Position numbers and translations under genes: made by a program. DNA of 52,452 nt. Origin: Escherichia phage EcoM1. The stretch lies in the sequence record PQ818760.1; one strand, written 5' to 3'. Below the pieces are notes generated by a model. The model saw only the letters and a program-made list of their open reading frames with translations, had not been told where the DNA came from and ran no database searches. Shown here in pieces: positions 20,112-51,039 of the stretch; position 1 is the first letter of the stretch, and every line of letters begins with the position of its first letter.

Positions 20112-20335
20112 TATTTCTTCCTTAGAATAGTTCCATTACCCTTAACAATTTGAATGTTGTCGGAGGTGTGGAGTCGCAGATTTGACTCGTGCTTTAACTT
20201 AACACAGTCGCTCTCTGTGGTAGAAACTGCCTCAATCACACATAAAATGTTTCCTTCCAAATCTTGAATCTGGAAGGAGTTGTTCTTGCGTGAGCGGGCA
20301 TCTAAACGAGTGATAACCGCCATATTTACATCCAT
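20111..20335 (-). CDS. hypothetical protein
   Basis: 74 aa ORF overlapping the terminase 3' end and coupled to the portal start. Confidence 0.3.
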   Translation of the reverse strand: MDVNMAVITRLDARSRKNNSFQIQDLEGNILCVIEAVSTTESDCVKLKHESNLRLHTSDNIQIVKGNGTILRKK

Positions 20336-22371
20336 GCGGAGTAGTTGGCACTTGGGCCTGAGAATTCGATTGCAACCATATCTGAAACGTTATCGACACA
20401 ATCGTCGTGTCCAGTACCACTACCCAAAGAAGTGAATCCAAGTATTTCACGTCTAACGTGGTCGATGTGTTCATGACCAGCAGGGAAGAATATTCTCTTT
20501 TGTGAGAAATATGGGATTGCGTTAAGGAATCGAGTTACCTTGTCATTACCATTAATCCCATCACGAGGCAATGGTAAAACTCGGACACTCCCATCTCTGA
20601 TAAATTGTTGGTTCAAGAATTGTCCGGCAGACTTGTCTTCCATGTACAGTGCACGAGGAATACAACCTACACACTTCAAGTCCAACTTGTTGCATTTGTT
20701 CCAGAAGTCGATGATAGCAGTCTTGAGTTCTGGAGTTTCAAACTTACCAAGCATAATATCTAAACAATAAACATCACGCTCTTTAGTCACGCCCCAATGC
20801 TTAAGGACCGAATAATCAGAATAGGACTTGGCAGTTGATGCCGTATCCGCTGTAATAAAGCTTCTGACTATGCGACTTCTGTCGAAAACGTCTGGTTCAT
20901 ACTCTTGCCACCAATCTTCTTTGATAAGGCCGTGGCCTTGTGCAGATGGGTCGCCAGCATACTGTGAATTGTATGTGTATGGGTTAGACTCTTTCATTGC
21001 CTCCAGAGATTCTAAGCTCTTACGTGAAGGCCATAATGCAGACTTCTCTTCCTTCCTGTTCAAATTATACAGAATGGGAATAGCATGAGTGTAGTTCTGC
21101 TTCTTGATTAACTTATCATACCATTCAGCACTTCCAACTCCCTTCTCAATAATCGCTGGGATATTGAGATAGTGGTATTTGTCAGAAGAGCCGCCACGGA
21201 GTATATAACCAACTAAATCCTGGTCGTGAACTCGCTGCATGATGATAACCATTGGTGTACGGGCACACTTAATTTGGTTTCCGTACGAATCAGTTATGCA
21301 ACCATCGTTGGCAAGACGTGACATGAAGGTGTTATCAAATCGGTCGTTGATTTCTGCTCGAACTGTGTCAGAGTAGGCATCTTTAGGTTTGATAACGTCA
21401 TCCACCACGAAACAACCGGAGTATTTTGCAACAAGAAGTCCAGCACCTTTACCAGTTAACTTACCGCCAGTTGGTACTGCGTGCATAACTCCAGCTTTGG
21501 TTGTACCCCAACGTTCAAGAGAACGTTTGTTAGGGTCGATTCTCACCTTCGGGAATATGCGTTGGAACAGTGGGTCCATCATTACAGCACGGATGTAACC
21601 ACTCGATTCAAGAACAACGTCTTCTGCATACGAGGTGATAATGTTATGACTCGATTCATTGTGGCAAAATGAATACAAGGGCAATGCAATACTCATGAGC
21701 TGAGTCTTAGAGTGTCGTGGTGGAATGGTCACTATTAAGCGGTCAATCTCACCGTCAACAACCTTCTGACCAACACTGAATATTACATCGTGAAAGTCTT
21801 GTGCTTGAAATGGAAATCCCATCTGAATATGGAACTGCCATTTACCAAAGGCTTCGAAACTTTTCATCAAGATTTTGCGAACACGTTCTGCAACCTTGGC
21901 AGGGATTACAGTTGGGTCCACGTTATGTGGGTCATGCAGAATCTTGTCTACAAGTTCATCGGTGTTATCATGCTCCGAGTTTGGCTCCTCTAATGTGGAA
22001 CCTGCAACACGGTCAGTAACACCTGCTTGAATACCTTTCTTCAACTCATCTGCATAGGCAGTCGAGTCTTTCTTGTCGCCAGAGCGAAGACGCTCAAGTT
22101 GTGCTCTGAAAACGGAACGCAATACAGCATCGTTTTCAAGACCCTGGCCTTCTAACTCTGCTTGAATTTGTTCTTCATAGCTGTCAACTATTGCAGTATT
22201 TTCTGAAATATATCGACGGAGCAATGGCAAAGATAGAATACAGAATCTTTCTCTTGAGACTTTTAATACGTCACCGTAGTGTTTGGCGAGATACGAGGCT
22301 ACTGTATCATTAAACTCCGGTCCGAGGTCATCAGTCTTTGACATTGATTCGTTCTCTTTGTTTTTAATCAC
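20326..22371 (-). CDS. terminase large subunit
   Basis: 681 aa with Walker-A-like IPPRHSKTQ, Walker-B CFVVDDV, and C-terminal nuclease-like GHDDCVDNVSDM; upstream of portal. Track start is GTG at 22371; first ATG at 22344. Confidence 0.8.
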   Translation of the reverse strand: MIKNKENESMSKTDDLGPEFNDTVASYLAKHYGDVLKVSRERFCILSLPLLRRYISENTAIVDSYEEQIQAELEGQGLENDAVLRSVFRAQLERLRSGDKKDSTAYADELKKGIQAGVTDRVAGSTLEEPNSEHDNTDELVDKILHDPHNVDPTVIPAKVAERVRKILMKSFEAFGKWQFHIQMGFPFQAQDFHDVIFSVGQKVVDGEIDRLIVTIPPRHSKTQLMSIALPLYSFCHNESSHNIITSYAEDVVLESSGYIRAVMMDPLFQRIFPKVRIDPNKRSLERWGTTKAGVMHAVPTGGKLTGKGAGLLVAKYSGCFVVDDVIKPKDAYSDTVRAEINDRFDNTFMSRLANDGCITDSYGNQIKCARTPMVIIMQRVHDQDLVGYILRGGSSDKYHYLNIPAIIEKGVGSAEWYDKLIKKQNYTHAIPILYNLNRKEEKSALWPSRKSLESLEAMKESNPYTYNSQYAGDPSAQGHGLIKEDWWQEYEPDVFDRSRIVRSFITADTASTAKSYSDYSVLKHWGVTKERDVYCLDIMLGKFETPELKTAIIDFWNKCNKLDLKCVGCIPRALYMEDKSAGQFLNQQFIRDGSVRVLPLPRDGINGNDKVTRFLNAIPYFSQKRIFFPAGHEHIDHVRREILGFTSLGSGTGHDDCVDNVSDMVAIEFSGPSANYSAWM

Positions 22372-22549
22372 AATCCACTAATGGCTGAGTTTGCACGGGA
22401 TTGATGCGAATGATGCTGCCTAAACCAGAATCGGCCTTTAAATACAGGCGGTTTAGTGGCATGTATGAATCACAGATAGGACATTGCTGCGTTATGAAAT
22501 CATCTTCTGCAATTTCATAATGGCAGTTAGGACATTGTATTGTGCGCAT
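22364..22549 (-). CDS. zinc-ribbon protein
   Basis: 61 aa with CPNC...17 aa...CPIC; overlaps the terminase start. Confidence 0.4.
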   Translation of the reverse strand: MRTIQCPNCHYEIAEDDFITQQCPICDSYMPLNRLYLKADSGLGSIIRINPVQTQPLVDCD

Positions 22550-22569
22550 AAGCGACTCCGAATAAGATA

Positions 22570-22587
22570 GGAGGCCAGATAGCCTCC
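22570..22587 (-). terminator. terminator-like hairpin
   Basis: GGAGGC-cagata-GCCTCC hairpin between the stop at 22605 and the start at 22549; followed on the gene strand by TATCTTATT. Confidence 0.4.
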
Positions 22588-22604
22588 CTAATTACGCGTG
22601 TCGC

Positions 22605-22934
22605 TTAATATTTAATATCGCTCCAGGCCATATCTTTATAGAAATCTTCAAGATATGCTTGGGTAGAACCAACAACCACCACAATCTTAAATGGCAGTAT
22701 CAGCGGCTTAACAGCCGACATTAAATCTTCGCGCCCACGCTTGATACGTTCGACGTTCTTGATTGTGTTTTCACCATGAGGGAGCATGAAAACAATAACA
22801 TCCGCACCTGTTTCGTTGCGAACTGCAAGTGCACGGGTGAGATAAGTCCCGCCACCAGTGGAGGTGACATTAGACTTGAGATATGCAAATTTAACTTTGC
22901 GGTTATTTACTACAACAGGTGAGGACAGTTTCAT
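22605..22934 (-). CDS. hypothetical protein
   Basis: 109 aa between dUTPase and terminase genes; could be a small terminase subunit by position but no motif supports it. Confidence 0.3.
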   Translation of the reverse strand: MKLSSPVVVNNRKVKFAYLKSNVTSTGGGTYLTRALAVRNETGADVIVFMLPHGENTIKNVERIKRGREDLMSAVKPLILPFKIVVVVGSTQAYLEDFYKDMAWSDIKY

Positions 22935-35121: not shown

Positions 35122-35200
35122 TTGTATATACCTTATATTGAATAGTTTTGCACGCCACGGTGACGTGACTTAGATAAAAATTAAAGAGCCTTTCTCTTTC

Positions 35201-35221
35201 CACATCCAACTAATGTTTCAG
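35201..35221 (-). promoter_or_regulatory. phage promoter-like element
   Basis: + strand cacatccaactaatgtttcag; gene-strand reading ctgaaACATTAGTTGGATGTG; 80 nt upstream of the ATG at 35121. Confidence 0.4.
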
Positions 35222-35245
35222 AACTGCTCTGATTCGTCAAACGAC

Positions 35246-36699: not shown

Positions 36700-37422
36700 A
36701 GGAACTCTCCAATTTTCGATTCAATGTTTGTGACTTCTCTTCTCATCTTTTGGCCCAGGAACAGGCCACAGGGTAGCGCAGGAAGGCCGAAAATCGGGCC
36801 ACTGCCTACCGTTTGTGTCAATTCTGGATAACTGCATTGGTGAAGGGTTACTCCCGTTAGGGTGCGATACGCTAATCACATGAGTGTCGTCGCCTTGCGG
36901 CTCAGGCGTGTCACAGAGGCTTTGCAACCCTTCCCAATACATTCACCCAATCCACCTGCTTTGGCATAGCTGGTGGCGCGGTTTTGTGCGGATTATGCCA
37001 CTCTAAGCCCTGTTTGTCCGACTTCCTCAGAGCACCAGCGGCTTGTGGCACAAACCTATTTTCGAATGACTAACATAAGCATGAGGCATAACCCTCTAAT
37101 TATTCAGCCCTAACAGCTTGCTTATTTAGTTCCAATTCATCCCAATACATCGCCTATAACAAGTGAATAGCTTTTCTGCGAAGAAGTATTCCGGCCCTTT
37201 GGCCTATGTTAAAAGATAAATGTATATGATGGAAACATTCCATCGAAAATAACTTTGTAGAATGAGTCGAACATTCTCGCACGATGCGGCCGCAACGGTC
37301 TACCGAGTTACAAAGTTATTATCTGATGTTGTTTCTTCAATTCCAACTAATGTTTCAGAATTATTCCAATATTCCAAACAAAAAGAATAATAAGAATAAA
37401 TTAAAATAAATGAAGAAAGTGC

Positions 37423-37452
37423 TTGACACTCATTTGGCGATAAGTGTATAAT
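37423..37452 (+). promoter_or_regulatory. consensus sigma70-type promoter, plus strand (antisense to genes)
   Basis: TTGACA (37423-37428), 18-bp spacer, TATAAT (37447-37452); preceded by a 45-nt A/T-rich tract (37376-37420) resembling an UP element. Coordinates anchored on the ORF ending at 37488. Confidence 0.5.
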
Positions 37453-37458
37453 GCCTTT
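37441..37458 (-). promoter_or_regulatory. phage promoter-like element
   Basis: + strand ttccaactaatgtttcag; lies inside the non-coding island, overlapping the -10 of the plus-strand sigma70 promoter. Confidence 0.35.
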
Positions 37459-37482
37459 CTTCCCTAAGTGGTCAGAATCAAA

Positions 37483-37499
37483 TCCCACTAATGTTTCAG
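37483..37499 (-). promoter_or_regulatory. phage promoter-like element (variant)
   Basis: + strand tcccactaatgtttcag, 30 nt right of the sigma70 -10 box. Confidence 0.35.
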
Positions 37500-44841: not shown

Positions 44842-45078
44842 TTAACCTCGTGCTTTAATGAATTGAGGGTGAACAGCCATTGCCACAATTTTGTTGTGCT
44901 TGTCATTTTGAATTGCAAGCCAAACATATTCAGGGTGTGCAGCAGGTTTCCAGACCAGACGCCCTCTTTCTCCACAAATCACCGTGTCAGCCAACATTAC
45001 TGCCTTAGTTACGGTATTAACCAAAGCATGTGAAACAGCACCGTCACGATTGATGTACTGATACAGTGCATAATTCAT
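44842..45078 (-). CDS. hypothetical early protein
   Basis: 78 aa; preceded by GGAG and a C9/G9 tract. Confidence 0.4.
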   Translation of the reverse strand: MNYALYQYINRDGAVSHALVNTVTKAVMLADTVICGERGRLVWKPAAHPEYVWLAIQNDKHNKIVAMAVHPQFIKARG

Positions 45079-45119
45079 TTCTGCTCTCCAAATTTGGAGG
45101 GTTTACTCCCCCCCCCGCA

Positions 45120-45338
45120 TTAAACTTCAATTGGCTCTTGAACTAAATCAGAGGCTGAGATTTCTTTAAACTCCTCCTCGGTAAAAGTTCTCTCATTGTC
45201 ATTTAATAAAACACCAATGTTAGAATCACCAACGAATACTGCATTTACATTAACATCATCTTCCAAAACTTTTTGCAGGTGTTCTCCACCACGCGTAAAG
45301 AAGATTGCACCATCTTCCAAATCTTTAAAACGAGTCAT
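45120..45338 (-). CDS. hypothetical early protein (first gene of the early array)
   Basis: 72 aa acidic protein; AGGAG 8 nt upstream of the ATG; preceded by a long inverted repeat. Confidence 0.4.
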   Translation of the reverse strand: MTRFKDLEDGAIFFTRGGEHLQKVLEDDVNVNAVFVGDSNIGVLLNDNERTFTEEEFKEISASDLVQEPIEV

Positions 45339-45360
45339 TTTATTCTCCTAAGTTAAAAGA

Positions 45361-45424
45361 ACTCCCTACAGAACGATTGTGGAGGTCTTGTCTTACCTCA
45401 ATCCACCTTAAAGTTGTAGGGAGT
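45361..45424 (-). promoter_or_regulatory. structured leader (10-bp inverted repeat with nested stem)
   Basis: ACTCCCTACA (45361-45370) pairs with TGTAGGGAGT (45415-45424); nested GAGGT/ACCTC stem inside; 23 nt upstream of the first early gene. Confidence 0.35.
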
Positions 45425-45531
45425 ATGTGACACAGCAAGTGCCGAAAAACTACAATGATTAGCTTGGAGACATAATCTCTCTAAAATCTGTCACACAATT
45501 TCAGCAGAATTTACAGAGATTTGGTCTTATT

Positions 45532-45548
45532 CACATGCAACTAATGAT
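45532..45548 (-). promoter_or_regulatory. phage promoter-like element (GCATGTG variant)
   Basis: + strand cacatgcaactaatgat; same as the recurrent element with c-to-g at one position. Confidence 0.3.
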
Positions 45549-46446
45549 AAATGGACATGCTTAATTGCAACTAACTCATCTGCCAAATAGACGAATTTTG
45601 TCACAATTAAACATGCATCATTAATTACAGGTTTGCTCCTATCTTGGAATGTATTTGGCACATCAAGAAGTGGCGCAATAGGTACGGAAAACCGACCATT
45701 TACAGCATAATAAAACTAATTAAATAAAGGGTTTTACCCCAATATTGTCACAATATTTACATGCGATGATAAAGCCTTCGCTTGGCTGGAAGCCAGTATT
45801 CATGCGGGTTGCAAGAATATTGGGTCAATACTGATACAGCTATTACATGCGAAATTGGCACAAATGTTGTTACAAAATTAACATGCCAGATTGGTAGACG
45901 ATTGTATCTTCGAGGTGATTAGTCCTCTAACAATTCTGCCACATTCCAACATGCCAATTTGTAGCAATATTTACATGCCATACTGCGACAATATTGTCAC
46001 AATATTTGTTGCTCAAAATCGGGGCGGGCTACGGGATTAGTTTCGATGCTTTGTCCGACTTCTTCTCTTCTTTCGAATTCTGATTGAAAGAAAGAAGCAT
46101 GTCCAAAAGTTCCAATATTACCAAAGTTATCTCCCGGCTTGTGGGTGGGCCTTTATAATAGGAGATGGAGCAATATTGAAACAAGTGGACATGCTGATTT
46201 GCTGACTTTCTTGTAACTTAATCAAGATGGCTAACACGATGTTCTGTTGTTAGTTCAGCACCGGAAGTAACAGTTTCGAATGATAATCCTACTTCACACA
46301 TGGTTGCTGGAACTTTGTCCGGCCAAAGACAGGGAGTTCAATGATTGCCACATCATTACAACACTGTATGTTTAGTTGACATGCTGAAATGTTTCTAGAA
46401 TGATTTCAACATGACATGCGGAATACTTCTCCGTATTCTGTTACTT

Positions 46447-46464
46447 CACATCCAACTAATGTCG
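46447..46464 (-). promoter_or_regulatory. phage promoter-like element
   Basis: + strand cacatccaactaatgtcg; coordinates anchored on the plus ORF starting at 46411. Confidence 0.35.
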
Positions 46465-46512
46465 AATATCGAGACAATATTACATGCAGCAATATTGTCT
46501 GAATATTGGGAA

Positions 46513-46680
46513 TCAGTTGAGCGTAGGCTTAACAACTTCATACTGCTTATCACCATCAGTGATTTCACAGTCTACATAGATATTCTCTTCACGAGCTGCA
46601 AACTTACGTGCTTCCTCTAAAGTCTCAAACTTCTCACAAACTGTTTTGCCGTAGTATGTAACGAGGTTAACTGCAAACAT
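46513..46680 (-). CDS. small protein (55 aa)
   Basis: Found by hand: GGAG 7 nt upstream of ATG at 46680, TGA at 46513-46515; a variant promoter-like element ends 29 nt upstream. Confidence 0.3.
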   Translation of the reverse strand: MFAVNLVTYYGKTVCEKFETLEEARKFAAREENIYVDCEITDGDKQYEVVKPTLN

Positions 46681-46708
46681 ATTATGCTCCAAATTGGTTT
46701 ATTAGATT

Positions 46709-46725
46709 CACATGCAACTAATGCC
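46709..46725 (-). promoter_or_regulatory. phage promoter-like element (GCATGTG variant)
   Basis: + strand cacatgcaactaatgcc, immediately after the polymerase stop and 29 nt upstream of the 55-aa ORF. Confidence 0.3.
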
Positions 46726-46743
46726 ATCCTTGGCACATAGTTG

Positions 46744-48684
46744 TTACTGACAGAAGTAGTAAGCGTGTTCGCTCATCAGCAACTCTTCTGTAACAATGTT
46801 CTCATGATACATCTGAATGCCACCAAGTTGCTTAGACAGATTCTCGAATTGATTGTTGGTTACAAAGATTTCAACATATGCTGCACGAATAACTTCCATC
46901 ATACGTGGAGCATCTGCCAGACAGCAACGGAAACAATCATGGATTGAAGTAAAGCCACGAAGACCAGCCTCTTTAGCTTTAACTGCAACAGTACGAGCAA
47001 CCAATGCGTCAATACCTTGAATGTAGTTAACAACGAAAGTACGCTTGAATTCTTCTTTAGTTGGATTGGATTCACGAATGGTCCAAGGCTTATTCTCCTG
47101 AATCTGGCCAAAGATAACACGAGTTTGAGAGTCAACACGAATGCTGAATGCCTCACAGATTTCACGAGATGGGAAGCAAGGCTTCATTACAACCTGACCA
47201 TCAGTGTGACGATATGTGATGTACTCTTTACCAAGTTCAACACAACGGTTGTATGCAGCATCAGCAGCCTTCTCAATGAACATGTTAATCTTAGCACCCA
47301 ATGCGTTATGGATTGCTTCTACACACAGTTCAGCAAATGCCTCAGCTTTCTCCATAGGAATCTGGAGCGCTTCTGTCATGTAGCTAATGAAGTCAGATGA
47401 ACCAGTTAATGCAGCTTTACCACCACCATATTGAATAGCCATGTACGGAGTTTTGATAAACTTACGACCAGCTTTCGGATTCAAGAATTCATCCATGATT
47501 TCAGGAGATGGTTTCATTGAAGAACGGTCTAATAACTTCAACAGTTCACGAAGAGATAACTGGTATGGGTCAGATGCTTTAGTCTCAGAATCAACCAGAC
47601 CTGTTGCACGAGCCATTTCCATGTTACCAGCAATGAATGCCAGATATTGAGTACCAGAACATTTAGCATCTAGGCCAAAGCCTACACGAGAATCGCACTC
47701 ACCTGTAGTCTCAAACTTGAACCAATCCAGAGCCAGACGAACATAAGTGAATGGCTTGGAAGGACGTTCAGCTTTAGGCATGTTCATCATGCGAGCAAGT
47801 GAACCAGCTGGATTCTGAGCAACATAAGTTAAACGCTTAGCAGTACACCATTCACCACCCGAAATATCTTCCAGCTCTGCCATGAACATGTTGTATGCAA
47901 TGGTAGTAGAACCATCTTCGTTAAACTTCTTAACGATGTTCTCAACATTGTGAGAATACAAGCAACGAGCAAAGTCAGATGATTGTGGGTTAGGACCAGC
48001 ACATGCTACATGATACAGACGACCACGGTTATCAGCAAAGTAGTCAGAGTACAGCTTATCCTGATTCATCATTGCTACAGCATTGTTCCAAACATGGAGT
48101 TCAGTCTGGATTGCTTCTGGCATCTGCAAGCCACCATAAGTACGTTGCTCAATCATGGACTGGATGATGCGAACCATCTCAGTCTCCACATGGTACTCAG
48201 TATCTTGCAGGAATTCGATTGCAGCTTTCAGAGTTTTGGATGGCTTAACTTTGCCACCTTTAACGAAAGGCTTGCGACGAGATTCAGATGTAACACGCTC
48301 AGTGAATGGCACTGCTGTGTCTTTGGTTGTAACCAGCTCAACCCATGTGTCAGTCTGTTGGAATGACTTGTCTTCGTTCATGGTGATGAAGCCAAAGTGC
48401 TTAGCCAGACCAATGAGGTTGATAGCTGGGTCAACATAGTGCATTGCTTTCAAATCGTTGTTATAACGGTTGGCATCAGCAATAGAAGCAGAAGCCAGCT
48501 CAACCATCGCGATGGCAGGAACAACGTCATCACGAGTGAAAGACGTCATCATCTTGAAGATGGCTAAGGCAGCAATAGCACAAGTCTGAGGCTGCATATA
48601 GTTCTGTTTCTCTTTGGCACGGTATACCAGAGCAGTGATAGCAGGAACAACGGATTTGATAGTTTGAGTAGTGATAGTAGTCAT
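46744..48684 (-). CDS. single-subunit DNA-dependent RNA polymerase (T7-type)
   Basis: 646 aa with the three catalytic motifs of T7-class polymerases: LDAKCSGTQYLAFIAG (T7 DGSCSGIQHF, motif A), KTPYMAIQYGGGK (T7 KRSVMTLAYGSK, O-helix K/Y), TSIHDCFRCC (T7 LIHDSFGT, motif C). Shorter than T7 RNAP (883 aa). ATG start with GGAG 9 nt upstream. Confidence 0.85.
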   Translation of the reverse strand: MTTITTQTIKSVVPAITALVYRAKEKQNYMQPQTCAIAALAIFKMMTSFTRDDVVPAIAMVELASASIADANRYNNDLKAMHYVDPAINLIGLAKHFGFITMNEDKSFQQTDTWVELVTTKDTAVPFTERVTSESRRKPFVKGGKVKPSKTLKAAIEFLQDTEYHVETEMVRIIQSMIEQRTYGGLQMPEAIQTELHVWNNAVAMMNQDKLYSDYFADNRGRLYHVACAGPNPQSSDFARCLYSHNVENIVKKFNEDGSTTIAYNMFMAELEDISGGEWCTAKRLTYVAQNPAGSLARMMNMPKAERPSKPFTYVRLALDWFKFETTGECDSRVGFGLDAKCSGTQYLAFIAGNMEMARATGLVDSETKASDPYQLSLRELLKLLDRSSMKPSPEIMDEFLNPKAGRKFIKTPYMAIQYGGGKAALTGSSDFISYMTEALQIPMEKAEAFAELCVEAIHNALGAKINMFIEKAADAAYNRCVELGKEYITYRHTDGQVVMKPCFPSREICEAFSIRVDSQTRVIFGQIQENKPWTIRESNPTKEEFKRTFVVNYIQGIDALVARTVAVKAKEAGLRGFTSIHDCFRCCLADAPRMMEVIRAAYVEIFVTNNQFENLSKQLGGIQMYHENIVTEELLMSEHAYYFCQ

Positions 48685-48752
48685 TTGTAAGTCTCCAAGA
48701 TTGTGTATGATTTAACTGAAACGGATTATAATAGCGTAGCCATTACACAATT

Positions 48753-48770
48753 CACTTCCAACTAATATCA
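48753..48770 (-). promoter_or_regulatory. phage promoter-like element upstream of the polymerase gene
   Basis: + strand cacttccaactaatatca, 69 nt upstream of the polymerase ATG; a TATAAT hexamer lies between it and the gene. Confidence 0.35.
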
Positions 48771-48909
48771 CAAACCTGTGCCATTGTTACAACAGCACGG
48801 AGACTTTGACCTTGACCTATAAGCGAAGCGCCTAACTTGGTGTTGTTTGAAAGCCGATAGGCTTTAGGAAAAAGTTGGGGTAGGGACCGTATTTTAAGTC
48901 CGATAGGAC

Positions 48910-49270
48910 GTTGGGCTTCCCCTCCTCGGAGATAAAAATTTTAAAATAATAATGTCACAACTTCCCCTCCTCGCTGGCCCAAAAATAAAAATTATAATTT
49001 TGCCACAATTCTAGTCTCATTAATATTGTAGCAATTTGAGTCTCATTAATTCCGTAACAATATTCGAAATAAAAAAAATTATATAAAAATTTTTATAACA
49101 TAGTCGGACTTCTGTTGTTACTTCGTAACGGGTTCGAACAAATTTCGGCTAGATACAGCTGACCGACCGTGAACGAATCTATATCCAGGTACAGTTGACC
49201 GACCATGTACCATTTGGTTTTGAACTTTACGCATTCCTAATATTACTTTAAATATTGTAGCAATATTGGG
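48910..49270 (-). repeat. AT-rich non-coding block with paired direct repeats
   Basis: Duplicated cttcccctcctcg (48916, 48961), (t/g)agtctcattaat (49012, 49038), ACAG(C/T)TGACCGACC(G/A)TG (49155, 49191), aatattgtagcaat (49022, 49251), and long A/T runs. Coordinates anchored on the polymerase start and the nrdB stop. Confidence 0.45.
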
Positions 49271-49384
49271 AATAAGTAATATTTAACTTTACTTATTTTA
49301 TTCTAGCTCAAAGAGAAACGACGCTAACGCATCGAATCTCTTCTCGCATATTAACTGACAAACGTCAGCCCTCACCGTATCCAA

Positions 49385-50485
49385 TCATAATTCAAATCCA
49401 CCTAGAGCATTGGTATCCACTTCGGAGTCAATCTGCCCGACAAGGTACGAACTAATCTCCGTTTCCTGCGGAGCAACCTGTACAGCATCCGAATTCAACC
49501 ATGCGTTAATCCACGGAATCGGGTTAGTAGCACCTTTGAATGGAGCATCTAATCCAACTGCTTGCATACGAATATTCGTGATATATTCCACATATCCGCA
49601 CAGAATTTGCTTGTTTAAGCCAATCATTGAGCCATCTTTGAACAGATAATCAGCCCAATCTTTCTCTTGTTGGGCCACATTTTCGAACATTTCTTGGCAT
49701 TCTTGACGGCATTCTTTAGCAATTTCGGCCATTTCTGGGTCATCAACACCACTTGCAAGAAGGTTCAGCATGTGTTGAGTTCCGGTCAAATGGAGTGCTT
49801 CATCACGAGCAATTAAGCGAATAATCTTGGCATTTCCTTCCATTAACTTGCGTTCAGCGAAGGCAAATGAGCAAGCAAAGCTGACATAAAAGCGGATTGC
49901 TTCCAGTGCATTGATAGACATGAGGCATAAATACAGCTTCTTCTTAAGCTCACGAAGAGAAACTTTATCTTCATGCAGATGCCACATGGAAGTTAGATGT
50001 TGAAGCTCGTCATAATATTGGGAGATGCCAATTGCACGCATTTTAATATGCTCATTCTCCACAATTTCATCGAAAATTGCGCTTGGGTCTGTCACGATAT
50101 TACGAATAATATGCGTGTAAGAACGAGAATGAATTGTCTCTGAGAATGACCAAGTTTCAATCCAAGTTTCAAGCTCAGGAATGCTCACAATTGGTAGCAA
50201 AACTGTAGTTGGTCCGCGTCCTTGAATAGAATCAAGCAGGATTTGGTATCGTAAATTGCTGGTGAAAATGTGTTTCTCACACTCAGGAAGACCAGCATAG
50301 TCAATTCGGTCCTGGCTAACATCAACCTCCTCAGGTCGCCAAAAGAAAGACAACTGCTTCTCGATTAACTTCTCGAAGATGCTGTACTTCTGTTGGTCAT
50401 ATCGAGCAACGTTAACGTTCTGACCAAAGAACATTGGCTCTAGTAGTTGGTTATTCTTGGTTTGTGAAAAGGTAGTGTAAGCCAT
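49385..50485 (-). CDS. nrdB: ribonucleotide reductase class Ia beta subunit
   Basis: [15 protein letters not shown] with the E-x2-H-x3-Y iron/tyrosyl-radical arrangement, a second carboxylate-His site (RDEALH), and upstream Asp/Glu ligands; 366 aa. Confidence 0.9.
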
Positions 50486-51039
50486 TACAGATTTCCTAGA
50501 TACTCATAGAATTTATGGCCACCATAACGTCCCAAACCTTTTACATTCTTGAAGTTACACTTCTCCGATGCTGTACAAAAGTGGGTTGCTTTGGTGACAG
50601 AGGGTTGATTAAATAATACAAAAGAGATTGCAACATTAATGGTGTCCAGAACTTGTTGTTGTTCTGTGGCATAATTAATCTTTGCTACATGCTTCCATTG
50701 AGCATTCTTCTTCTTTGCTTCTCGTGTCCATGCAAATTGATTGCGTTGATAGACAACATCACAAACGGTGTTAGCGAATGGCTTCCCGAACTCTGTTCTA
50801 TTGCGGACGACATTAGCTACCAGAATCTTTCCATGTTTGTCTTCTCCGCGAGCCTCATACCAGATAACTTTAGTGTAGCATTCTAGCTCTTTGCGTTGTG
50901 AAGAAGATAGTTTCAGACTTCCATTTAAATAAGAATGACTTGCAAAATCTGTAATAGCAGAATTCACTGCCCCAACCGAAGCTGGGGCGTTGATGTGAAC
51001 TAAAGCTGTCAGAAGTGCAAGAACTTTGAATGATAGCAT
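50485..51039 (-). CDS. secreted cell-wall hydrolase, CwlJ/SleB-like
   Basis: N-terminal signal peptide ([24 protein letters not shown]) then [24 protein letters not shown] and [11 protein letters not shown], matching the CwlJ/SleB catalytic-domain signature; immediately downstream of the holin. Confidence 0.7.

Follow-up and report, generated by a model that had tools for sequence, protein, structure and literature searches.

Non-coding DNA upstream of the RNA polymerase gene of Escherichia phage EcoM1: a likely early promoter and operator region beside a putative terminal-repeat boundary

What is the role of an AT-rich, repeat-laden block of non-coding DNA in the genome of Escherichia phage EcoM1, and does it hold the physical ends of that genome? 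The block spans positions 48910-49270 of sequence record PQ818760.1 (hereafter the window, i.e. the whole stretch of 52,452 nucleotides (nt) that was analysed, to which all coordinates refer). A preliminary description, made from the letters of the sequence, placed it in a gap of 700 base pairs (bp) between nrdB and a polymerase gene and proposed that the ends, terminal repeats or a packaging signal might lie there. The gap is exactly 700 bp long (48685-49384), between the minus-strand open reading frames (ORFs) 49385-50485 and 46744-48684, and the first of these is nrdB as proposed; the second encodes an RNA polymerase, not a DNA polymerase. By homology, the proposal about the ends fits the 700-bp gap as a whole and fails for the flagged block, which is a unique-sequence flank, the left end falling 8-13 bp to the left of position 48910. 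Judged by its sequence, the region is the already described repeat junction of the Chaseviridae, ordinary in kind and here mapped in more detail. With moderate confidence, the block is read here as an early promoter and operator region, the unique flank (~360 bp) that would precede a terminal repeat of ~2.85 kilobases (kb).

Phage records similar to the gap number 69, with identities of 76-90%, and almost all belong to Chaseviridae of Escherichia, Yersinia and Erwinia, among them phiEcoM-GJ1, ST32, flopper, MLP1 and the PYps23T group; the window is a phiEcoM-GJ1-like genome, a Carltongylesvirus in the Chaseviridae family. According to the profile issued by the international committee for virus taxonomy (ICTV), genomes of this family are linear, terminally redundant and non-permuted, with repeats of ~3 kb. 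The window contains no long repeat, its first bases are a stop codon and its last a start codon, and not a single ORF runs across the junction. The window is therefore taken to be a complete genome, arbitrarily opened and given in reverse orientation, with its terminal redundancy collapsed to one copy, in agreement with the circular permutation suggested earlier from gene order.

To place the ends, repeat boundaries were located in seven relatives and then projected onto the window (a slash marks a boundary within a sequence):

Mangalitsa (MN045229): repeat of 3234 bp, by PhageTerm; begins TTAAAATACGG directly after ..CCTATCGGAC
4HA13 (vB_EcoM-4HA13, MN136198): repeat of 3120 bp, by PhageTerm; begins TTAAATACGG
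Myduc (MN098326): repeat of 3202 bp, by PhageTerm; begins CGGGAG..
Y2 (vB_EamM-Y2, HQ728264): repeat of 2608 bp exactly, from a record with both copies; ..GTCCTGTCG before, starts GACTTAATAATACGG
PM1 (KF534715): repeat of 2665 bp exactly, from a record with both copies; ..CTCCCTATCG before, starts GGAGATAAATACGG
JL1 (OR791690): repeat of 2995 bp exactly, from a record with both copies; ..GTCCTAT before, starts CGGACTTAAATACGG
PYps23T: repeat of 2339 bp, by ligation-PCR and run-off sequencing; its site differs from the other six

The left ends of those six fall within six nt of one another, in the 3' arm of a GTCC-TATC-GGAC dyad that corresponds to window positions 48897-48902, the first repeat base being projected to T48897 from Mangalitsa and 4HA13, to G48900 from Y2 and PM1, and to C48902 from JL1 and Myduc. 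The left-end sequence of the relatives, ..CCTATCGGAC/TTAAA(A)TACGGTCCC.., is present at 48880-48909. On the other side, the right boundaries of JL1, Myduc and PM1 align at 46057/46056 (after ..TC or ..AC and before GGAC or GAAC), with that of Mangalitsa a few nt earlier and that of 4HA13 a few nt later. On this homology I infer two boundaries for EcoM1:

48897-48902, minus strand: putative left physical end, i.e. the left boundary of the direct terminal repeat (by homology to six relatives)
46052-46062, minus strand: putative right boundary of the terminal repeat, ..GAAGAAGTC/GGACAAAG.. (by homology)

The terminal repeat of EcoM1 would then measure ~2.84-2.85 kb and contain the RNA polymerase gene, and virion DNA of ~55.3 kb is thus predicted. 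With the right boundary at 46052-46062, the repeat block that the preliminary description had noticed at about 45.95 kb falls just past the other boundary.

The left boundary lies within a conserved element of its own:

48846-48909, minus strand: twin-dyad terminus element, with the dyads GTCC-TATC-GGAC and AAAGCC-TATC-GGCTTT

The two dyads are 46 nt apart and flank TTAAAATACGGTCCCTA, so that the element reads GTCC-TATC-GGAC / TTAAAATACGGTCCCTAyyCCAACTTTTTC ... AAAGCC-TATC-GGCTTT, and CCTATCGG occurs exactly twice in the genome, both times here. Pairwise identity of the twin-dyad segments is 0.89-0.98, and in comparison with Erwinia phages the gap DNA can be aligned only over ~77 bp around the cut, an Aeromonas phage aligning further. 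In the first dyad, the arms GTCC/GGAC change in paired fashion: Faunus has ATCCC/GGGAT, and PM1 has CTCCC/GGGAG. Pairing holds in 90% of cells, both partners differ in three pairs, and the pairing does not survive a shift of the register. Since only four distinct sequences are involved, this covariation is weak evidence. The hairpins at the boundaries, like the GGTCGGTCA repeats described below, showed no stability above that of shuffled sequences (z = -1.55, -0.23 and -0.29 as DNA; 0.17 as RNA), hence what is conserved is dyad symmetry at the cut site and not a strong structure. Conservation across genera makes the ~100-bp terminus element (~48830-48930) a better candidate for terminase recognition and cutting than the flagged block, and it would be the most likely site of both. 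A scan of IMG/VR for the terminus motif returned 11 stretches, from relatives only; one contig with the motif at both ends was set aside as evidence of physical ends, for it looks like a circular-assembly overlap. A cut motif TCGGAC shared by both boundaries was likewise rejected, with 15 copies in the genome against 19 expected and none at the right boundary of Y2; its presence at both boundaries in the window, JL1, Myduc and 4HA13 is kept as a weak observation only.

If the cut falls outside the flagged block, what does the block contain? Its GC content is 34%, against 37% for the whole gap and 38%-52% for 1-kb windows of the whole sequence. The four short sequences that the preliminary description reported as present twice in direct orientation were all recovered as exact pairs:

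48916 and 48961: 13-nt direct repeat CTTCCCCTCCTCG
49013 and 49039: 12-nt direct repeat AGTCTCATTAAT
49022 and 49251: 14-nt direct repeat AATATTGTAGCAAT
49160 and 49196: 9-nt direct repeat TGACCGACC

Such a number is far from chance expectation: 0.40 +/- 0.63 exact direct repeats of at least 9 nt are expected from 2000 dinucleotide-preserving shuffles of 48910-49270, none of which reached four. In a repeat search the pairs grow into imperfect units, 38 nt long at a spacing of 45 nt, 26 nt at 26 nt and 24 nt at 36 nt, and a fifth pair is added at 48846/48892; in the whole window, each of the repeat motifs of the gap is found only there, twice, and always on the gene strand. The long A/T runs are equally real: a pure A/T stretch of 30 nt at 49069-49098 is the window's AT-richest, and nowhere in the 52 kb is a duplex less stable than in the 50-mer surrounding it (free energy -49.7 kcal/mol, against a mean of -67.5 with a standard deviation of 3.9). 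The flopper record labels the iterons and the A/T tract merely as 'repeat_region'.

An alignment of 12 close relatives, compared with Faunus, Y2, PM1 and three metagenomic relatives (including the L014, L016 and L017 sequences), resolves the gap into modules whose order is common to all relatives compared and is kept across four or five genera. In gene order, the twin-dyad element standing between the last two, these are:

49306-49347, minus strand: hairpin of an intrinsic terminator that follows nrdB (from a terminator scan; 3' side U-rich, inner stem CGAUGC-GUUA-GCGUCG)
49251-49267, no strand assigned: perfect palindromic site AATATTGTAGCAATATT, inside a larger dyad (49239-49248 / 49274-49283)
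49151-49210, minus strand: pair of 24-nt direct repeats at a distance of 36 nt, with the core GGTCGGTCA(A/G)CTGTA
49069-49098, no strand assigned: 30-nt pure A/T tract that includes a T-run and, on the minus strand, a TATAAT (49078-49083)
48995-49064, minus strand: three tandem 26-nt iteron-like units TTAAyGAGACTnnAATTGnnnCAATATT, i.e. TTAAyGAGACT-nn-AATTGnnnCAATATT
48916-48998, minus strand: tandem 45-nt unit (T-run, then CGAGGAGGGGAAG), with 13-nt cores at 48916-48928 and 48961-48973
48751-48767, minus strand: copy of a putative phage-promoter motif (TATTAGTTGGAAGTGAA), 67 bp upstream of the ATG of the RNA polymerase gene

Conservation was gauged against a near-neutral baseline, namely the third codon positions of the flanking genes (pairwise identity 0.81-0.82). 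The terminator, alone among the structures compared with shuffles in standing out (RNA fold of -23.8 kcal/mol, z = -5.5), reaches a pairwise identity of 0.99-1.0 in the 12 relatives against 0.81 at third codon positions; the segments 49344-49305, 49264-49205 and 49064-45 (the first iteron) stand at 0.93-1.0, likewise above the baseline, and the terminus element attains this range too. The palindrome at 49251-49267 is invariant in the 12 relatives and occupies the same place in Y2, Faunus, PM1 and L014. Those four are also among the relatives with one or two copies of the GGTCGGTCA core, which is absent from the rest of the window. Other parts are more labile. The T-run of the A/T tract differs in length among the 12 relatives, the copy number of the 26-nt unit ranges from ~2.5 to 5, and its core follows lineage (GAGACT in Escherichia phages and Faunus, ACGGCTC in PM1, AGATTC in Y2 and L017). 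The 45-nt unit, made of a TATAAT/TATTAT -10-like box followed by TTTTTATTTTT-GGGCC and CGAGGAGGGGAAG, is present in two copies in the window, MLP1, TH28 and Bp10 and in one copy in other relatives, and indels concentrate at 49004-48945 and 49184-49105. A ribosome-binding site lies between the phage-promoter motif (48767-48751) and the ATG of the RNA polymerase gene. As regards structured RNA, no tRNA was found in the window and no Rfam family in 45000-49600, where the sole hit is a sub-threshold miRNA model at 46446-46526.

The reading of the block as an early promoter region draws on the following site:

48991-49020, minus strand: predicted sigma70-like promoter ATGAGA-18-TATAAT followed by a T-run, directed toward the RNA polymerase gene

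The site is the top minus-strand match in the gap in two scans and agrees with the consensus at 10/12 positions. It is homologous to the 'putative host sigma70 promoter' of phiEcoM-GJ1 (EF460875 364-393), which reads TTGACG-18-TATTAT and is therefore different in sequence, both sites being predictions. The -10 box (TATAAT/TATTAT) and the T-run are kept in 12/12 close relatives and in Y2, L014, L016 and PM1; the GGGCC that follows them is likewise kept in Y2, L014, L016 and PM1. Neither the relatives' alignment nor a position weight matrix (PWM) scan revealed a conserved sigma70-like site from the left end to the ATG of the RNA polymerase gene, yet the host enzyme must first read the polymerase gene, which supports a promoter in the block.

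The operator part of that reading comes from a palindrome, AATATTG-N3-CAATATT, which has 23 matches with at most three mismatches in the window against 4.55 +/- 2.18 expected. Three sites are perfect (14/14; 49251, 45990 and 45741), and the good matches form two clusters, at 48996-49267 and 45741-46507, in the non-coding flanks of the RNA polymerase gene:

45741-46507, no strand assigned: second palindrome cluster (8 sites with at most two mismatches, 2 of them perfect), which straddles and follows the right boundary

The earlier remark that a motif of the block recurs near 45.95 kb was accurate, ttgtagcaatatt being found at 45958-45971. The repeat blocks are the non-coding regions at both repeat boundaries, and this is why the motif appears on both sides of the polymerase gene. 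In Mangalitsa, 4HA13, JL1, Y2 and PM1 a palindrome site lies 46-74 bp beyond the right repeat boundary, the corresponding distance in the window being ~47-51 bp; further sites lie 112-354 bp before the left boundary, and some inside the repeat. Moreover, palindrome sites overlap the predicted core promoters at 49020-48991 and, with the sequence TTGAGC-17-TATTGT, at 46016-45988. Repressor operators usually overlap core promoters.

From the observed anatomy of the gap, its conservation and its homology to mapped ends, I infer promoter activity and protein binding of the following kind. In replicating concatemers the block would lie between nrdB and the site of the left-end cut. Host RNA polymerase would start at the TATAAT/T-run promoter or promoters and read across the repeat boundary into the phage RNA polymerase gene, whose product would launch the phage's own transcription programme. 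The palindromes and iterons overlapping the promoters would bind a sequence-specific, probably phage-encoded protein controlling early transcription; the left end would be cut 8-13 bp outside the block, in the twin-dyad element, the likelier terminase target.

Candidate promoters of the phage itself were noted as well. The sequence CATTAGTTGGATGTGAA, annotated nine times as 'putative phage promoter' in phiEcoM-GJ1, recurs at homologous places of the window, with gene-strand matches at 48767, 46723, 46461, 45546, 41554, 37493, 37352, 35547, 35215, 27491, 22383 and 7872. These are 12 minus-strand matches against one on the plus strand, to which a low-confidence match with four mismatches inside nrdB may be added. 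The ICTV describes the phage promoters of the family as 'not yet identified', which makes CATTAGTTGGATGTGAA the obvious candidate.

Observations on the other flank of the RNA polymerase gene may be set beside these. In the region 45339-46743, ~1.2 kb downstream of the gene are nearly free of ORFs, a conserved ORF of 55 amino acids (aa) at 46513-46680 (PHROG 32102) being the only one, and the DNA is 93-97% identical to that of PYps23T and Mangalitsa. GCATGT has 13 minus-strand copies in this region against ~0.5 expected locally, usually directly before a palindrome (GCATGT-AAATATTGnnnCAATATT), an arrangement also found in Y2, PM1 and Myduc.

Several findings weigh against an early promoter and operator region preceding a fixed end. 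The PWM score of the promoter is 9.3, and 38 sites on the minus strand score as well or better genome-wide; in a consensus scan of the region, promoter-like sites are no more numerous than in shuffles, and the -35 box is poorly conserved between genera. The accessible part of the Chaseviridae literature gives the promoters of the family as predictions only. The promoter would stand outside the repeat and, in virion DNA, would thus be upstream of just one copy of the RNA polymerase gene, the right-hand one. As for the operator, a search of ten early small ORFs and of the ORFs adjacent to the gene for TerL, the terminase's large subunit, with Pfam and PHROGs yielded no informative match for a protein binding the palindrome, and no DNA-binding domain among the ten. 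The change of iteron cores with lineage points to a phage-specific protein, for which a replication initiator or a terminase small subunit would be just as good a candidate. As for the end, the mapping of PYps23T conflicts with that of the six other relatives. Its boundaries are the equivalents of 48756/7, still inside the 700-bp gap, and 46451/2, and both fall inside copies of the phage-promoter motif (..ATTAGTTGGA/YGTGAA..); they could represent a genuinely separate type of end, or else nicks or stops that occur at the motif (CATTAGTTGGA/TGTGAA) and were taken for ends. Furthermore, phiEcoM-GJ1 was first proposed to be permuted, and one Erwinia relative was predicted to package by the headful mechanism.

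The same iterons, GGTCGGTCA repeats and bent A/T tract could alternatively form a packaging recognition array, that is, a binding region for the terminase small subunit comparable to cosB or pacL/pacR, which would position the large subunit for a cut 90-300 bp downstream at 48897-48902, with the motif cluster past the other boundary serving the second cut. This is the most serious competitor, although I consider it unlikely. The direct repeats and the A/T tract do adjoin a cut site mapped in relatives, the repeat motifs are all unique to the gap, the iteron cores co-vary with lineage as expected of a phage-encoded recognition protein, and palindromes recur 46-74 bp past the right boundary in five relatives and 112-354 bp before the left one. 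However, palindrome sites are found inside the repeat as well, a copy number of 2.5 to 5 is tolerated, and cross-genus conservation lies in the ~100-bp terminus element, which could suffice for both recognition and cutting. Nor is a terminase small subunit recognisable beside the TerL gene at 20329-22371: in the region 20329-22934, TerL (681 aa; PHROG 38, Terminase_6C) is preceded upstream by a 61-aa ORF with faint zinc-ribbon matches and a 109-aa ORF of no recognisable family. A palindromic site fits a dimeric regulator better than a small subunit, whose sites are usually direct repeats, and this also counts against such an array.

A replication origin, either of the iteron type or akin to the secondary origins that T7 has near its ends, is improbable. 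What speaks for it is that three 26-nt iterons (48995-49064) abut the 30-nt A/T tract (49069-49098), the genome's least stable duplex and thus easily unwound, in non-coding DNA that is conserved. A T7-type definition fails, for no phage-promoter motif lies upstream of the A/T tract on the gene strand, the nearest being the copy at 48767, which is downstream, and the four-mismatch match in nrdB. The gap has neither a perfect DnaA box nor an IHF consensus, none of the ten early ORFs was recognised as an initiator-like protein, and the cumulative GC skew falls steadily across the window and hence locates no origin. A better T7-like candidate is at 37311-37493. There, 37311-37411, the second most AT-rich and least stable region, lies between the phage-promoter motifs at 37493 and 37352, an arrangement that resembles the T7 primary origin (two phage promoters and an A/T-rich stretch). 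No direct repeat of 30 nt or longer occurs in the window other than the one that the two motif copies of this region form with 35192-35242. Genome-wide, DnaA-box-like 9-mers (TTWTNCACA, at most one mismatch) are depleted, 85 being present against 146 +/- 12 in shuffles.

Least probable of all is that the block has little or no function and is a slippage-prone, recombination-scarred spacer between transcription units, in which small ORFs, spurious or real, occur: the number of unit copies and the length of T-runs do vary, indels abound in 49004-48945 and 49184-49105, shuffled sequence forms hairpins as stable as those near the ends and some records annotate ORFs of ~33-69 aa in the gap, yet several modules exceed the third-codon-position identity of the flanking genes, module order is kept in four or five genera, and repeat content is far above that of shuffles. 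A small protein encoded in the gap was in any case rejected, for the ORFs of the window there do not exceed 38 aa and most substitutions in the region of a 37-aa ORF alter the amino acid (compared by eye between the window and PYps23T); the small ORFs called in the gap of related records are probably not genes. The larger indels inside the 37-aa ORF are multiples of three (18, 18, 36 and 36 nt), two of them being the loss of one 36-nt repeat unit.

The genes around the gap, all on the minus strand, also match the arrangement in the family:

50488-51039, minus strand: cell-wall hydrolase ORF
49385-50485, minus strand: nrdB, for the NrdB small subunit (366 aa; PF00268, E 1.6e-49; annotated so in flopper, PYps23T and MLP1)
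46744-48684, minus strand: gene of a single-subunit, T7-like RNA polymerase (646 aa; PF00940), which would lie inside the terminal repeat

The late/lysis block ends with nrdB, and the gap follows downstream. EcoM1 and flopper have the same RNA polymerase protein (100% identity), the records of relatives annotate an RNA polymerase too, and on the conventional map of phiEcoM-GJ1-like phages this is the first gene. EcoM1 thus shares with the Chaseviridae of known terminal repeats the family, the gene order (late genes, then nrdB or lysis genes, then the gap and RNA polymerase) and the conserved terminus element. In those relatives the repeats are 2.6-3.2 kb long, with a start ~200-420 bp upstream of the RNA polymerase gene and an end in the non-coding DNA that follows it; the length projected for EcoM1 is unlike that of each relative.

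Phage T7 offers a functional parallel, and the features compared were its 160-bp terminal repeat, the early promoters A1-A3, phiOL/phiOR and the concatemer-junction (CJ) pause site. Common to both are a single-subunit RNA polymerase and short-repeat arrays on the unique side of both repeat boundaries, and EcoM1 would also share with T7 non-permuted DNA ending in direct terminal repeats and host promoters that drive the polymerase gene first; in T7, such arrays are said to flank the terminal repeat. The EcoM1 repeat, by contrast, would be ~18x longer and contain the polymerase gene, with the host promoter outside it, and the Chaseviridae virion is a myovirus whose terminase is described as T1-like, unlike T7. 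Transcription into the concatemer junction takes part in DNA maturation in T7. By analogy, both repeat edges of EcoM1 might act as one two-sided module, a phage dimeric protein sitting on palindromes at the unique sides of both boundaries and host-polymerase transcription into the twin dyads being coupled to the terminase cut and to duplication of the repeat. This speculative and rather doubtful scheme would be the host-polymerase analogue of T7 transcription pausing at the concatemer junction, and the location of the PYps23T ends, each within a copy of the phage-promoter motif, may belong to this coupling of transcription and cutting. The T7 class II pause heptamer ATCTGTT is found neither in the gap nor near 46052-46062, the nearest minus-strand copies being at 49647 and 39816.

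Kilobase-scale repeats holding the genes first needed in infection are known from the pre-early region of T5 and the host-takeover module of SPO1. EcoM1 would likewise have a kilobase-scale repeat with its first-expressed gene; it differs in having no sequence relationship to either, and its repeat would be essentially the RNA polymerase gene plus the 55-aa ORF. With lambda ori, plasmid oriV, lambda cosB and SPP1 pacL/pacR the block shares tandem short repeats beside unstable or bent A/T DNA, and it differs from them in having no assignable initiator or small-subunit gene and no DnaA or IHF sites in the gap. In the papers on the family that were surveyed, no description of the repeat block, the twin dyads or the palindrome network was found.

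For annotation, it follows that the genome may be opened near 48897-48902 on the minus strand and that ~2.85 kb would be missing from the collapsed assembly. For the family, the twin CCTATCGG dyad, conserved across at least five genera, is a candidate cut site; the block supplies a candidate host promoter starting the infection programme, and the palindrome is a candidate operator-like mark of both non-coding regions around the RNA polymerase gene. Two problems are exposed along the way, namely the conflict between published end mappings (PYps23T versus six) and the position of the early promoter outside the terminal repeat.

Some observations on sequence variation in and near the repeat complete the picture. 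The gap is a mosaic: the part that would lie in the repeat (48685-48915, as compared with 48916-49384) shares 99.1% identity with phiEcoM-GJ1 and TH53, no record exceeds 89.5% over the whole gap, and the flopper gap reaches only 84% despite the identical RNA polymerase protein, which suggests recombination breakpoints near the repeat boundary. A subgroup comprising TH28, JL1, Bp10, TH37 and Mangalitsa has an extra coding segment of ~174 bp between the terminus element and the conserved start of the RNA polymerase. In Mangalitsa, JL1 and Bp10 it is annotated as part of an RNA polymerase of 705 aa; it might extend the N terminus or be a small ORF of its own. Finally, the short spacer that separates two early ORFs (45120-45338 and 44842-45078) has a run of nine C at 45108-45116 (G9 on the gene strand), perhaps a tract prone to slippage, perhaps a sequencing error in a homopolymer.

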